A stretch of 64,000 bases of DNA. Source: a virus. The DNA lies in IMG/VR virus record IMGVR_UViG_3300043571_000443, positions 1 to 64,000 of that record; one strand, 5' to 3'. This document shows positions 208 to 62,689 of the stretch, piece after piece. The notes under the pieces were generated by a model that had not been told where the DNA came from, did not search any database, and was given only the letters and a program-made list of their open reading frames with translations. The translations under genes were made by a program, and so were the position numbers. Each line of letters opens with the position of its first letter. Position 1 is the stretch's first letter.

Positions 208-625
208 AAACTCCCACGATGGTGGGGATACTTGGCGACGTAGGATTTACCCCCACGCTGGTGGGGCTAGCCGATCCTAGGCGATGGACTCCCACGGAGT
301 GGGACAGGCGGGATCTATCGGAAAAACCCCCACGGCGGTGGGGAGCGCTAGCTGAGCCAGGGCGACGGACTCCCACGCAGGCGGGCCAAGGGCTGTCAAG
401 ATAAACTCCCACTATGTGGGCTCATTTATGTAGGGAAAGACTCCCACCAGGGTGGGGATGGCTGGCTGGCCCGGGCAATGGCAGACAGACTCCCAGAGAA
501 ACCCCCAGAGAAACCCCCACGGGGGTGGGGATGGGGAGCTACCGCTGATCGACGGACCCCCACGGGGGGTGGGGCTAGGAAGAAAAAATGATCGGTTACC
601 GATCCACTCCCACCGAAGTGGGATC
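208..625 (-). CRISPR. Array A: 10 minimal I-E-type repeats (hairpin plus 8-nt handle) with ultra-short spacers
   Basis: CCC(C)AC-loop-GTGGG(G/A) stems at about 211, 250, 290, 327, 371, 407, 441, 514, 557 and 608. On - each is followed by a handle such as GTGGATCG, GTCCGTCG or GTTTTTCC. Spacers about 25, 19, 25, 13, 13, 19, 15, 15, 15 nt. Confidence 0.8.
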
Positions 626-670
626 CACTTACCACCAAGTTGTCAAGGTTCCTGCCAACACTATACCACA
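626..670 (-). promoter_or_regulatory. array leader A: -10 TATAGT then boxA-like GAACCTTGACAA
   Basis: TATAGT at 660-665(-), motif at 640-651(-); homologous to leaders at 6012-6065 and 15018-15070. Confidence 0.65.
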
Positions 671-673
671 GAA

Positions 674-1495
674 CTACCCCGCCACGCTCCATTCCTTCCA
701 CGCCAGCGGGCTAGCCTGGTTGAGGATCATGCCCGACACCCTGGCAGGCCCAGCTAGCTCGAACTCGCCCAGGCCCTTGCTCAGGTGGCGCAGGCTGGCC
801 CGGCCAATGGCCCAGGGATCGGTCAAGGTGCATTTCACCCCAGCGGCCACGACAATGCCGCCGTTGAACGCCTGCAGTCGCCGCCATGGCCATAGGAGGT
901 ATTGCACTAGGTCTGGGTTGTCAGCATCGAGTGTCTCGCCGTAGTCGATGGGGCGCTTCCACCAGGGCACCCAGGACGATACCGGCACCGCGTTGAGCTC
1001 CAGGAAGTCTGCTAGGGTATCGCCCCACTTCCAGGCCACTAGCTGGCCCATGTGGCTGGGCTTAGGCCCGCTGATCGGCAGGCCCTTTACCTGTGCCTTG
1101 AGCCCGGGCCTATCGCAGAAGTAGGCGGTGATCAATGCCTTGATCAAGTCGGCCTCGCTCACCCGTCTGTCCAAGAAGTTACGGGGCACCAGGGCGGGGC
1201 CGGATCCATCCATCAGGTCCATGATGGCCTGCGGGCTACGGGTGGAGGCTTCCGGCAGGCCCGTTACTTGCAGGAACCCTGGCCAGCCAGGGCAACCCCA
1301 CAGCGGCATATCGCCCGGCAATGGTTGGTTTTCCATAGTGACACTAGCCATAGCCAGCAGCAGGCGTAGGAACGCCTGGCGGGTGAGGTGGCCTTCGCTG
1401 ATGTCGGTGTAGGCTTCAGGGCTGGCCAGTAGGTCGGCCAGGCTGGCGGTGCCTTGGGGGGTGGCAATGCAGGGGTAAGTAAAGATGTCGGCCAT
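674..1495 (-). CDS. cas8e: truncated type I-E large subunit Cas8e/Cse1 (N-terminal domain only, 273 aa)
   Basis: ATG at 1495 with GGAG RBS; Cse1-like motifs SLADLL, AFLRLLLAM, FLQV, GDTLADFLELN, PWW, YLLWPWRRL; about half the usual length; divergent from the cas6-cas7-cas5 operon. Confidence 0.7.
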   Translation of the reverse strand: MADIFTYPCIATPQGTASLADLLASPEAYTDISEGHLTRQAFLRLLLAMASVTMENQPLPGDMPLWGCPGWPGFLQVTGLPEASTRSPQAIMDLMDGSGPALVPRNFLDRRVSEADLIKALITAYFCDRPGLKAQVKGLPISGPKPSHMGQLVAWKWGDTLADFLELNAVPVSSWVPWWKRPIDYGETLDADNPDLVQYLLWPWRRLQAFNGGIVVAAGVKCTLTDPWAIGRASLRHLSKGLGEFELAGPARVSGMILNQASPLAWKEWSVAG

Positions 1496-1565
1496 GTGGT
1501 TCTCCAGATAACGAAAAAGTGTTACTATCCAATTGTAAGCCATTAGTCGGGTTACGAGGAACCAC

Positions 1566-61233: not shown

Positions 61234-61235
61234 GG

Positions 61236-62342
61236 TTATTTCCCTCTAAAATCGTCACTGTCAATCAAATCGAAAGCCTGGCCAGGGTTATGTTCCATCA
61301 CCACTGACTCAAGCCTGGCCTGCACACTACTCCTGTCATGGCAGCCATCTAGAAAAGCATCTACATGGTCAAGCAAGAAAGGAATCTCGTGTCCAGGCGT
61401 ATCAGAACGCTCCCCGTACATCATTGCCAACGCCCAATGCAGCTGATCAATGCGACACTCGAAACCGAAATACTTAGACTGCCCTGTAGTTGGATTACCT
61501 GGACGATACACACCCCTGCAATATTTGGCGGGCACCCGCTCCATCCATGCAGCCTTGTTCTTAGACGAAGCCCAGGTTTTATTCCTTTTCTGAAGCAGAG
61601 TCCGGCAATCCGTTATGATGTAAGCCTCTCCATCTTTAAGCACCTGCCCAGAAATCTGCTCCTCAGGAGAAGAGGCAGATAAATTCTTGATCACACCAAC
61701 CACACGCTTGCCAGACTTCAAGATTTTTTCTGTCAGCTTTTCCCCATCTGGCTGAGTAATCAAATTCTGAGTAAGGATGGGGCCGTCTACAATAACCGAC
61801 TGGCTAGAACAGTTAAGAGCCAGCTCCCTCTCTTTGTACTCTCGGAACGTGTTAGGCCACGACCTGTCTTGAATGGTCAACGACTCAATCAACTGATCAA
61901 AGGAAAAACCTTTTTTGCCAGCTAAAGCTGGGGTCGCCTGCGCTCTAAACACTTGAGGGTCAGACATGCTAGTGGTGTACCCTATGCCAGCGACAATAAC
62001 CTCATAAAACTGCCCAACCAAAGTCTGAATCAAGGGACTGTCGGTCGCATCTATTGCAAAAAGATCGTCCCTATACTGCTGAATTTCAGGATCGTAGTAG
62101 TCAAACCAATCTTGCAGGTTGCAAAGAAATCCAACATCAGGCAAAGAATCCTTAGAAGATTCGTTCCACTGATCTGGGGTCATAAAGCAACCCTCGACAA
62201 AATGCCTCATCTCTGCCAATGCAGGCTGCGACCTTTCAAACAAATCCAGTACTTCTGCGGTCTGATAATGCAACGGATCGTTGTAAACGTCGTCAGTAAT
62301 GTCTTTGCAGCCTGCAAGAATCTTTGAAAACTCAGACGCCAT
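61236..62342 (-). CDS. nurA: NurA-like nuclease
   Basis: FAIDA, YKERELAL, VIVDGPI, VVGVIK, IPFLLDHVD; adjacent to herA. Confidence 0.7.
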   Translation of the reverse strand: MASEFSKILAGCKDITDDVYNDPLHYQTAEVLDLFERSQPALAEMRHFVEGCFMTPDQWNESSKDSLPDVGFLCNLQDWFDYYDPEIQQYRDDLFAIDATDSPLIQTLVGQFYEVIVAGIGYTTSMSDPQVFRAQATPALAGKKGFSFDQLIESLTIQDRSWPNTFREYKERELALNCSSQSVIVDGPILTQNLITQPDGEKLTEKILKSGKRVVGVIKNLSASSPEEQISGQVLKDGEAYIITDCRTLLQKRNKTWASSKNKAAWMERVPAKYCRGVYRPGNPTTGQSKYFGFECRIDQLHWALAMMYGERSDTPGHEIPFLLDHVDAFLDGCHDRSSVQARLESVVMEHNPGQAFDLIDSDDFRGK

Positions 62343-62432
62343 CTATAAAACTCCAGTCTGCGTACTGTCAACAAAGTCATGCTAACACAACTAAGCTTAA
62401 AGTTGGCGGCTATTATTTGGATTTTATAACTT

Positions 62433-62689
62433 TTGGGTTCCCCCACCCCTGTGGGGCCTGCACCATCTGGTTGAACCACCCCCACCGCAGCGGGGCAGTT
62501 AACGCCCTTCAGCAGGACACACCCCCACCCCGTGGGGCCTCTGAAAAGCTACCGATCCACCCCCACCATCATGGGACACCATAACCCTGTAGGAGTCACC
62601 CCCACCCGGTGGGGCACAGGAGCTAAACCGATCAACTCCCACCGCAGTGGGGCCTTTATCCCGAGTGACTCACCCCCACCAGCGTGGGG
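62433..62689 (-). CRISPR. Array E: 7 minimal repeats with spacers of 13, 14, 15, 15, 19, 15 nt
   Basis: Handles GTGAGTCA, GTTGATCG, GTGACTCC, GTGGATCG, GTGTGTCC, GTGGTTCA after CCCCAC-loop-GTGGGG stems. Confidence 0.85.

Follow-up and report, generated by a model that had tools for sequence, protein, structure and literature searches.

Short type I-E CRISPR-like hairpin units beside a reduced cas module in a phage genome: candidate mini-crRNA cassettes

The window analysed here comprises 64,000 nucleotides (nt), bases 1-64000 of the 74,186-bp IMG/VR virus record IMGVR_UViG_3300043571_000443, with a G+C content of ~57%. This 74-kb phage record is bounded by direct terminal repeats and is taken as a complete genome. 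It contains about 50 hairpin units resembling type I-E CRISPR repeats, most of them separated by short spacers, as well as a reduced set of type I-E cas genes. These units, their spacers and the neighbouring cas module are the subject of the present analysis.

The dominant repeat family consists of CCCCAC, a loop of 3-5 nt and GTGGGG and occurs in intergenic clusters on both strands; the window holds 49 hairpins in nine clusters. Hairpins were detected independently of the flanking handle by the core CCCAC-N3-5-GTGGG, and their orientation was taken from the 3' flank. Since a conserved 3' flank, G-T-n-n-n-T-C-n, is seen in one hairpin orientation only, the transcribed strand of each cluster could be assigned. 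A covariance model (R1) built from 33 phage units recovered all units in the genome. R1 also matches, in the same orientation, bacterial type I-E arrays on unrelated metagenome contigs, which have the 29-nt repeat GTATT-CCCCAC-ACGC-GTGGGG-GTGAACCG and a period of 61 nt. Because these are bona fide I-E arrays, the phage unit is judged to be the core of a type I-E repeat, composed of a Cas6e hairpin and the 8-nt segment which becomes the 5' handle of the CRISPR RNA (crRNA). Rfam at gathering thresholds gave zero matches in the window, and no GenBank phage was matched by megablast of 20 kb or by blastn of both long arrays described below. Relatives were collected via Cas7e, the short Cas8e and DNA patterns, which resulted in 17 records from several IMG projects.

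The cas module is located at the beginning of the window and comprises the following genes:

674-1543, minus strand: short cas8e (Cse1 N-terminal domain only), 289 amino acids (aa), homologues of 256-299 aa with PF09481
1566-2210, plus strand: open reading frame (ORF) with a 1-nt overlap with the start of cas6e, sub-threshold SfsA match
2210-2821, plus strand: cas6e, 203 aa, PF08798 at 1.5e-31, PADLOC Cas6e
2917-4170, plus strand: cas7e, 417 aa, PF09344 at 4.9e-69, PADLOC Cas7e at 2.7e-69
4163-4609, plus strand: short cas5e, 148 aa, PADLOC Cas5e at 9e-41

The AlphaFold2 (AF2) model of the short Cas8e (pLDDT 85) has Cse1/CasA as its top Foldseek matches (E 3.5e-8, TMq 0.63, TMt 0.41). It covers about the N-terminal 60% of these structures (targets of 450-540 aa), and the C-terminal four-helix bundle of full-length Cas8e is absent from the 289-aa protein. 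Thirteen further homologues of the short Cas8e exist beyond the contigs examined. Cas6e possesses His17 in an SLHRY motif and the glycine-rich loop GIGREKAYGCG and is predicted to be an endoribonuclease. The nearest solved structure to Cas7e is Cse4 of Thermobifida fusca (PDB match, 4e-33), and the short Cas5e can be aligned with roughly the first 158 residues of Cas5e proteins 224-254 aa in length, the C-terminal third being absent. The ORF at 1566-2210 possibly encodes a PD-(D/E)XK nuclease, although this assignment is weak and the Mrr_cat/PDDEXK atlas leads score below 0.9. No match to Cse2 (PF09485) was obtained in the phage genomes G000, G001 and G002 or in the metagenome-assembled genome (MAG) introduced below, while a control genome matched; a very divergent small subunit could have escaped this search. 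Across the 74-kb genome there were no matches to the Cas3 HD domain or to Cas1 either.

A distant second lineage, designated L056, is represented by the 116-kb contig CAVYAN010000048.1 from the MAG of an uncultured cyanobacterium, a hint that the host range of this family is cyanobacterial. Its module (9947-18260) contains an operon of short cse1, cas6e, cas7e and a 148-aa cas5e, with a phosphoadenosine phosphosulfate (PAPS) reductase gene close by and about 45 hairpin + GTnnnTC units. A counterpart of the ORF at 1566-2210 is missing from this operon.

The phage module shares Cas6e, Cas7e, Cas5e and the N-terminal domain of Cas8e with the canonical type I-E systems of Escherichia coli, Thermus thermophilus and T. 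fusca. Common to both are furthermore a G/C stem of 6 bp with a 4-nt loop, an 8-nt 5' handle and apparently unconstrained sixth guide bases. In contrast to the canonical systems, the phage module is devoid of Cas11, Cas3 and Cas1-2, its Cas8e is without the C-terminal bundle and its Cas5e is about 35% shorter. Between handle and hairpin there are 12-25 nt compared with 37 nt in canonical I-E, handle positions 3-5 vary, a conserved 5-nt repeat part before the stem is missing, and the arrays are dispersed through the genome. Instead of the 28-29-nt repeats with ~32-nt spacers of type I-E, short units with 12-25 nt and long arrays with 37-nt repeats are found. The 2025 classification includes the I-E variants I-E2, I-E3 and I-E5; neither there nor in the literature searched was a published I-E derivative found which combines a truncated Cas8e with the absence of Cas11 and Cas3, nor were published natural arrays of 8-20-nt-equivalent guides. 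The phage module is judged to be a previously undescribed type I-E variant.

The hairpin units are distributed over the window as follows:

212-623, minus strand: array A, ten hairpin units (R1) downstream of the short cas8e gene, spacers 5' to 3' of 25, 19, 49 (fused decayed units), 12, 12, 19, 15, 15 and 15 nt
2828-2880, plus strand: two hairpins between cas6e and cas7e, one 13-nt spacer, identical in three genomes
4618-4859, plus strand: seven hairpins, 8 nt past the cas5e stop, spacers of 15, 13, 13, 12, 13 and 19 nt
6065-6541, plus strand: hybrid array B, six 37-nt repeats, spacers of about 32-36 nt (handle-to-stem 45-49)
8662-8677, minus strand: solitary hairpin with the partial handle GTGCTTAC
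13757-13811, plus strand: two hairpins, one 15-nt spacer
14538-15018, minus strand: hybrid array C, handle-to-stem 39, 48, 49, 47 and 49, then 16, 13 and 13 nt
23409-23502, minus strand: three hairpins, spacers of 15 and 15 nt, paralogous to one spacer of the array at 62441
62441-62689, minus strand: seven hairpins upstream of a nurA/herA-like and type IV block, spacers of 13, 14, 15, 15, 19 and 15 nt

The arrays run in the direction of the genes beside them and often start 6-8 nt past a stop codon, the unit at 2828, for instance, 6 nt past that of cas6e. The densest short arrays flank cas8e, cas6e, cas7e and cas5e. Two arrays are hybrid in structure: in the repeat of array B the hairpin is preceded by the 13-nt 5' extension CTCGCAAACACCT and followed by the handle GTTTCTCC, and the distal end of this array has spacers of 38 and then 19 nt. 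Both B and C switch distally to short units without the 13-nt extension. The guides of the array at 62441-62689 recur in at least eight related records. A near-palindrome, GTGTACTTAAGTAGTACAC, is located at 190-208, at the distal end of array A, and is kept in three genomes.

The 3' flank of the hairpins is conserved in a manner that depends on the position of the unit in its array. Of the 234 internal units, 226 have all four handle positions G1, T2, T6 and C7, compared with only 3 of the 49 terminal ones; for the three-genome subset the figures are 140 of 144 and 1 of 32, respectively. Examples of terminal units are that of array A (212-227), with the degenerate handle GTTTAAGT, and the last one of the array at 4618-4859, with the handle GTGTGCCA. 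As the handle is kept only before a further hairpin, it behaves as the 5' end of a crRNA is expected to. Furthermore, the stem is preceded by a C in none of 58 cases; such a C would pair with G1 of the handle and extend the stem to a seventh pair.

A preliminary description of this DNA had noted compensatory stem pairs, exemplified by CCCCAT/ATGGGG near 4657, and freely varying loops. The stem in question is indeed present at 4657-4672, in the array behind cas5e, and the loops are the variable part, with 50-65% identity between orthologous arrays compared with 82-87% for the flanks. However, CCCCAT/ATGGGG turned out to be the sole full compensatory change within the inner five pairs. Among the one-sided changes, 28 of 29 are G.U wobbles on the assigned strand, almost all in the left arm, and the right arm is invariant. 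Classical covariation statistics are weak because the stem hardly varies. The pattern of stem variation nevertheless supports, on the level of sequence, an RNA function read from the assigned strand. In L056 further full compensatory stems exist (CTCCAC/GTGGAG, CCCCGC/GCGGGG and CTCCAA/TTGGAG).

Spacer length is given as the number of nt that separate the 8-nt handle from the 6-nt arm of the following stem. The 28 short spacers of the window comprise three of 12, seven of 13, one of 14, ten of 15, one of 16, five of 19 and one of 25 nt, and all six with at least 17 nt measure 19 or 25 nt. The earlier hand count of the classes 12-13, 15, 19 and 25 (about nine, nine, five and two units) thereby proved correct within one unit. 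In addition, 12 long spacers of 38-49 nt and the fused 49-nt stretch are present. The 17 records together yield 169 short spacers, 97 of them distinct, which fall into the classes 12-16, 19-21 and 24-25 nt:

12-16 nt: 12 spacers of 12 nt, 40 of 13, 32 of 14, 43 of 15 and three of 16
19-21 nt: 28 spacers of 19 nt, four of 20 and one of 21
24-25 nt: two spacers of 24 nt and four of 25

The distribution in the related phages is thus non-uniform, and the lengths 17, 18, 22, 23 and 26-31 nt do not occur among the 169 spacers. After removal of similar spacers, 59 remained for length statistics. Among the 20 spacers of 16-25 nt none has one of the gap lengths 17, 18, 22 or 23 (P = 4e-5 against a uniform null), and at period 6 a Rayleigh R of 0.51 is obtained (P = 1e-4, 59 dereplicated spacers). 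Orthologous spacers with insertions or deletions stay within or move between the allowed windows (12/14, 15/14/13, 25/21 and 15/20). Spacer lengths are therefore quantised, the first class being a window of 12-16 nt with peaks at 13 and 15.

The second line of evidence comes from the substitutions within the spacers. For this purpose, equal-length orthologous or paralogous spacers were arranged in 16 groups, and the minimum number of substitutions was determined for each position, counted from the end of the handle. Position 6 received eight events and position 12 five, compared with five events for positions 1-5, 7 and 8 together. Hence 13 of the 25 events at positions 1-12 fall on positions 6 and 12 (P about 5e-5), while any other phase collects at most four, and the seed positions of orthologous spacers are almost invariant. 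Positions 6 and 12 are those at which, in Cascade, a Cas7 thumb turns the base out of the duplex. Peaks at these two positions are predicted a priori by a Cas7 model, and the register fixes the handle at 8 nt; they also imply pairing of the guides with conserved targets. In a 19-nt group of the form CCCTG-N-CTCAGCTA conservation extends over the first 14 nt and the last five vary, which fits a location of these five nt outside the guide. Column-wise conservation over whole arrays (MAFFT) set the 5' part only weakly apart from the last 5 nt; it is blurred by the gain and loss of units, and the groups of orthologues were used instead. The data support guides that would be read directly after the 8-nt handle in a Cas7-type register of five paired bases and one flipped base. 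The proposal in the preliminary description that the spacers are selected guides rather than decayed arrays agrees with the peaks at 6 and 12, with terminal units having lost the handle and with the avoidance of C at -1. Such a sixth-position signature could serve as a general test, based on sequence only, for whether an orphan array is read on a Cas7 backbone.

On these grounds we consider it probable, with some reservation, that the short units function as mini-crRNA cassettes of a reduced type I-E system carried by the phage. From the anatomy of the units, their conservation, the length classes and the gene set we infer the following scheme of cleavage, assembly, stoichiometry and outcome. 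The arrays in operon junctions would probably be co-transcribed with the flanking genes, and the phage Cas6e would cut at the 3' base of each CCCCAC-N4-GTGGGG stem. The products, about 36-49 nt in length, would consist of the 8-nt 5' handle GUnnnUCn, a guide stretch of 12-25 nt and the next hairpin. The short Cas5e and the N-domain of Cas8e may cap the handle, Cas6e may stay on the hairpin, and two to four Cas7e subunits may coat the guide, the three length classes corresponding to 6k+1 nt with slight slack. The guide would then pair with its target in segments of 5 nt, each sixth base being flipped out. Most likely the complexes would bind short complementary sites of 8-20 nt without cutting them, since Cas11, the helical bundle of Cas8e, Cas3 and Cas1-2 are absent and no nuclease is linked to the module except for the weak PD-(D/E)XK-like ORF. 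The outcome might be a set of multiplexed RNA-guided repressors or blockers of nucleic acids of the host or of rival elements.

This scheme has a counterpart in engineered Cascades. In E. coli each 6 nt removed from the crRNA costs one Cas7, shortening by 3 nt or by 6 nt gives the same complex with one Cas7 lost, and a crRNA shortened by 18 nt leads to (Cas7)3-Cas5-Cas6e without Cse2 (Kuznedelov et al. 2016, PMC5159557). In the light of these data the gene losses of the phage (Cas11, Cas8e bundle) and its guide lengths would fit together. The phage units, as we read them, would resemble these complexes in having one Cas7 per 6 nt, in tolerating non-multiples and in the lack of Cse2 in the shortest forms. 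However, the E. coli constructs were made in the laboratory within a full system and their shortest spacer tested had 14 nt (PMC5159557), whereas the short forms of the phage are natural, go down to an equivalent of about 8 nt and occur where the genes for the belly subunits are gone. Another related case are the crlRNA/CreA/CreR mini-arrays (Shmakov et al. 2023, bioRxiv 10.1101/2023.03.03.530964), which are likewise repeat-like, have short or partial guides and act by binding without cleavage. They are, however, single units beside a complete cas operon which they auto-regulate, whereas the phage has about 30 distinct short guides per genome.

Several observations weigh against the interpretation as mini-crRNAs. 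The preliminary description had placed the short spacers at 13, 19 and 25 nt, the Cas7 step, in register with the canonical 37-nt I-E crRNA. The step itself is borne out insofar as the peaks at 19 and 25 nt lie exactly 6 and 12 nt above 13, but spacers of 14-15 nt outnumber those of 13 nt (75 compared with 40 of 169). As 14 and 15 are off the 6k+1 series, the ruler must have slack, and the rule is better written as windows of 6k+1 with about -1 to +3 slack; the occurrence of 14-16 nt beside 13 is explained by the slack observed in E. coli. The proposed register with the canonical crRNA is not supported by the long-spacer arrays of the phage (handle-to-stem 36-55), which are without 6-nt periodicity and not centred on 37. 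Moreover, all 17 records belong to a single phage clade, and the spacers of L056, which measure 16-51 nt, show no periodicity (R6 = 0.20, P = 0.34). A strict 13/19/25 rule is consequently confined to one clade; seen more widely, the phenomenon is that of a reduced I-E module which lacks adaptation genes and whose guides are heterogeneous and often short. The substitution test comprises just the 25 events mentioned above.

A further difficulty concerns the targets. Guide matches in three phage genomes were at chance level, both for exact k-mers and for a masked search which left positions 6, 12 and so on free and was compared with shuffled or reversed guides. Likewise, matches of the L056 guides to their own MAG were at chance level only, no target of the short guides was detected in cas promoters, and the long spacers had no full protospacer in any related record and no match to a GenBank phage. 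The only non-trivial match is that of the 25-nt guide of array A, GCCATTGCCCGGGCCAGCC... (464-482, minus strand), to the phage's own short cas8e (793-811, minus strand). It lies on the coding strand, extends over 19 nt with a single seed mismatch and is found likewise in G001 (23272); G000 has a decayed hairpin upstream of this guide. The match may be a relic of the origin of the guide or a regulatory site.

The presence of a second effector set in the same genome also counts against the assignment of the guides to the I-E module:

53245-58005, minus strand: complete type IV effector set of csf1, cysH-like (PAPS reductase), cas6 (PF09559), csf3, csf2 and cas11

Read from the sequence, this set might provide an alternative Cas7-family backbone for the guides. 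It is conceivable, though rather unlikely, that the guides are real and are carried, after cleavage by its own Cas6, by the Csf1/Csf2/Csf3/Cas11 complex of the phage, the I-E module using some of them or none. The backbone protein Csf2 belongs to the Cas7 family and has a 6-nt step. Both the length and the substitution signals would thus fit a type IV complex equally well, and the seven-unit short array at 62441-62689 heads the type IV gene block. The densest short arrays, however, lie at the four I-E genes, hairpin and handle correspond to those of type I-E repeats, and in L056 the arrays directly follow the I-E module (csf genes were not sought in L056). The set resembles type IV-B in its csf1, csf2, csf3, cas11 and cysH-like genes, and type IV-B is also without nuclease and adaptation module. 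Type IV-B loci are normally without Cas6 and arrays, whereas the type IV set of the phage includes cas6; the RNA in the solved type IV-B complex is a non-CRISPR one (PMC7937560).

The probability is still lower, in our view, that the units are decoys similar to RNA-based anti-CRISPRs (Racrs), which would trap Cas6e, Cas5e and Cas7e of a host I-E system in useless mini-complexes and for which the spacer sequence would be irrelevant. The hairpin with its handle is a close mimic of an I-E repeat widespread among bacteria, many copies are located in transcribed junctions, and the use of solitary repeat units for this purpose, also against I-E, is known from phages (Camara-Wilpert et al. 2023, PMC10651486). 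Racrs and the units described here are both phage-encoded mimics of CRISPR repeats. Yet Racrs are solitary, act via the part upstream of the cut and form complexes without binding of Cas5 or Cas8 (PMC10651486), whereas the phage units are tandem and have kept both the 5' handle and conserved seeds. The conserved seeds together with the free sixth bases point to target pairing, and the phage encodes its own matching Cas proteins. In addition, the cyanobacterial MAG of the sister element, which is possibly incomplete, shows no full Cse1 or Cse2. Conserved seeds and the lack of a full Cse1 or Cse2 in this MAG make a decoy role less likely, and the known mechanism of Racrs makes no use of the 5' handle.

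Equally improbable is that the hairpins are Cas6e-dependent mRNA punctuation (processing or 3'-end protection, the spacing being set by Cas6e packing) or functionless decaying remnants: the clusters are intergenic, co-oriented with the genes and begin 6-8 nt after stops, some units are visibly degraded (the fused 49-nt stretch of array A is an example), and unit numbers are unequal between relatives, but punctuation requires one hairpin and not tandems of 7-15 and leaves the conserved handle, the empty length gaps and the peaks at 6 and 12 unexplained, and shared guides persist across samples of several projects.

Beyond the reading of the short units as mini-crRNA cassettes, a more far-reaching proposal can be put forward tentatively, although it seems somewhat more doubtful than not. 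The phage may possess a natural 'seed-only' system in which ~30 guides of 8-20 nt are carried by Cascades of two to four subunits without belly subunits, nuclease or adaptation genes. It would act as a multiplexed binder of host or rival nucleic acids similar to small RNAs or Argonaute, with a Cas7 ruler setting the length and the guides evolving by point mutation instead of acquisition. Should the findings on the short units be confirmed, Cascade would work naturally with two to four Cas7 subunits and seed-length guides, so far a laboratory artefact only, the loss of Cas11, the Cas8e bundle and Cas3 would accompany short guides, and guides would be maintained and diversified without Cas1-Cas2. 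Such a system would represent a very compact programmable binder as well as a model for multi-subunit effectors growing from simpler ones.

In the arrays of two relatives, L109 (2075-2462) and L092 (4125-4326), shared short guides occur in changed order and copy number; GCTTGGTGGAGGTG is present three times and GTTTAGCTCCTGTG twice. This reordering suggests cassette shuffling by recombination between hairpins.

Besides the CRISPR-like units, the window contains two families of G/C-rich hairpins with T-runs, which are terminator-like and distinct from them:

5949-5991, 13704-13746 and 53224-53266: terminator-like hairpins
8146, 8603, 51988 and 52350: further terminator-like hairpins

One of these hairpins is located 85 nt upstream of array B. 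An identity of the CRISPR-like units themselves as intrinsic terminators or hairpins of the repetitive extragenic palindromic (REP) type was rejected, as no T-run follows the stem on the assigned strand and the GTnnnTC flank is strand-specific; terminator-like matches were mostly opposite-strand reads of the CRISPR-like stems or chance T-rich flanks.

The array behind cas5e is followed by a conserved motif, AATATACCCC...ATAT (4873-4929, plus strand), of which copies exist near 8481, 52305 and 54983. It precedes a near-consensus sigma-70 promoter at 4900-4929 (TTGACA-18 nt-TATAGT), and a sigma-70-like factor is encoded at 7562-8152. The motif is possibly a phage promoter or operator family. Upstream of the type IV operon, the region 58352-62342 comprises a HerA-like gene and two genes without family match. 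Finally, in-frame tandem repeats are found in two ORFs, 126 nt in one of 1348 aa (20316-21245) and 144-147 nt in one of 364 aa (32967-33988), both of which probably encode repetitive structural or fibre proteins.

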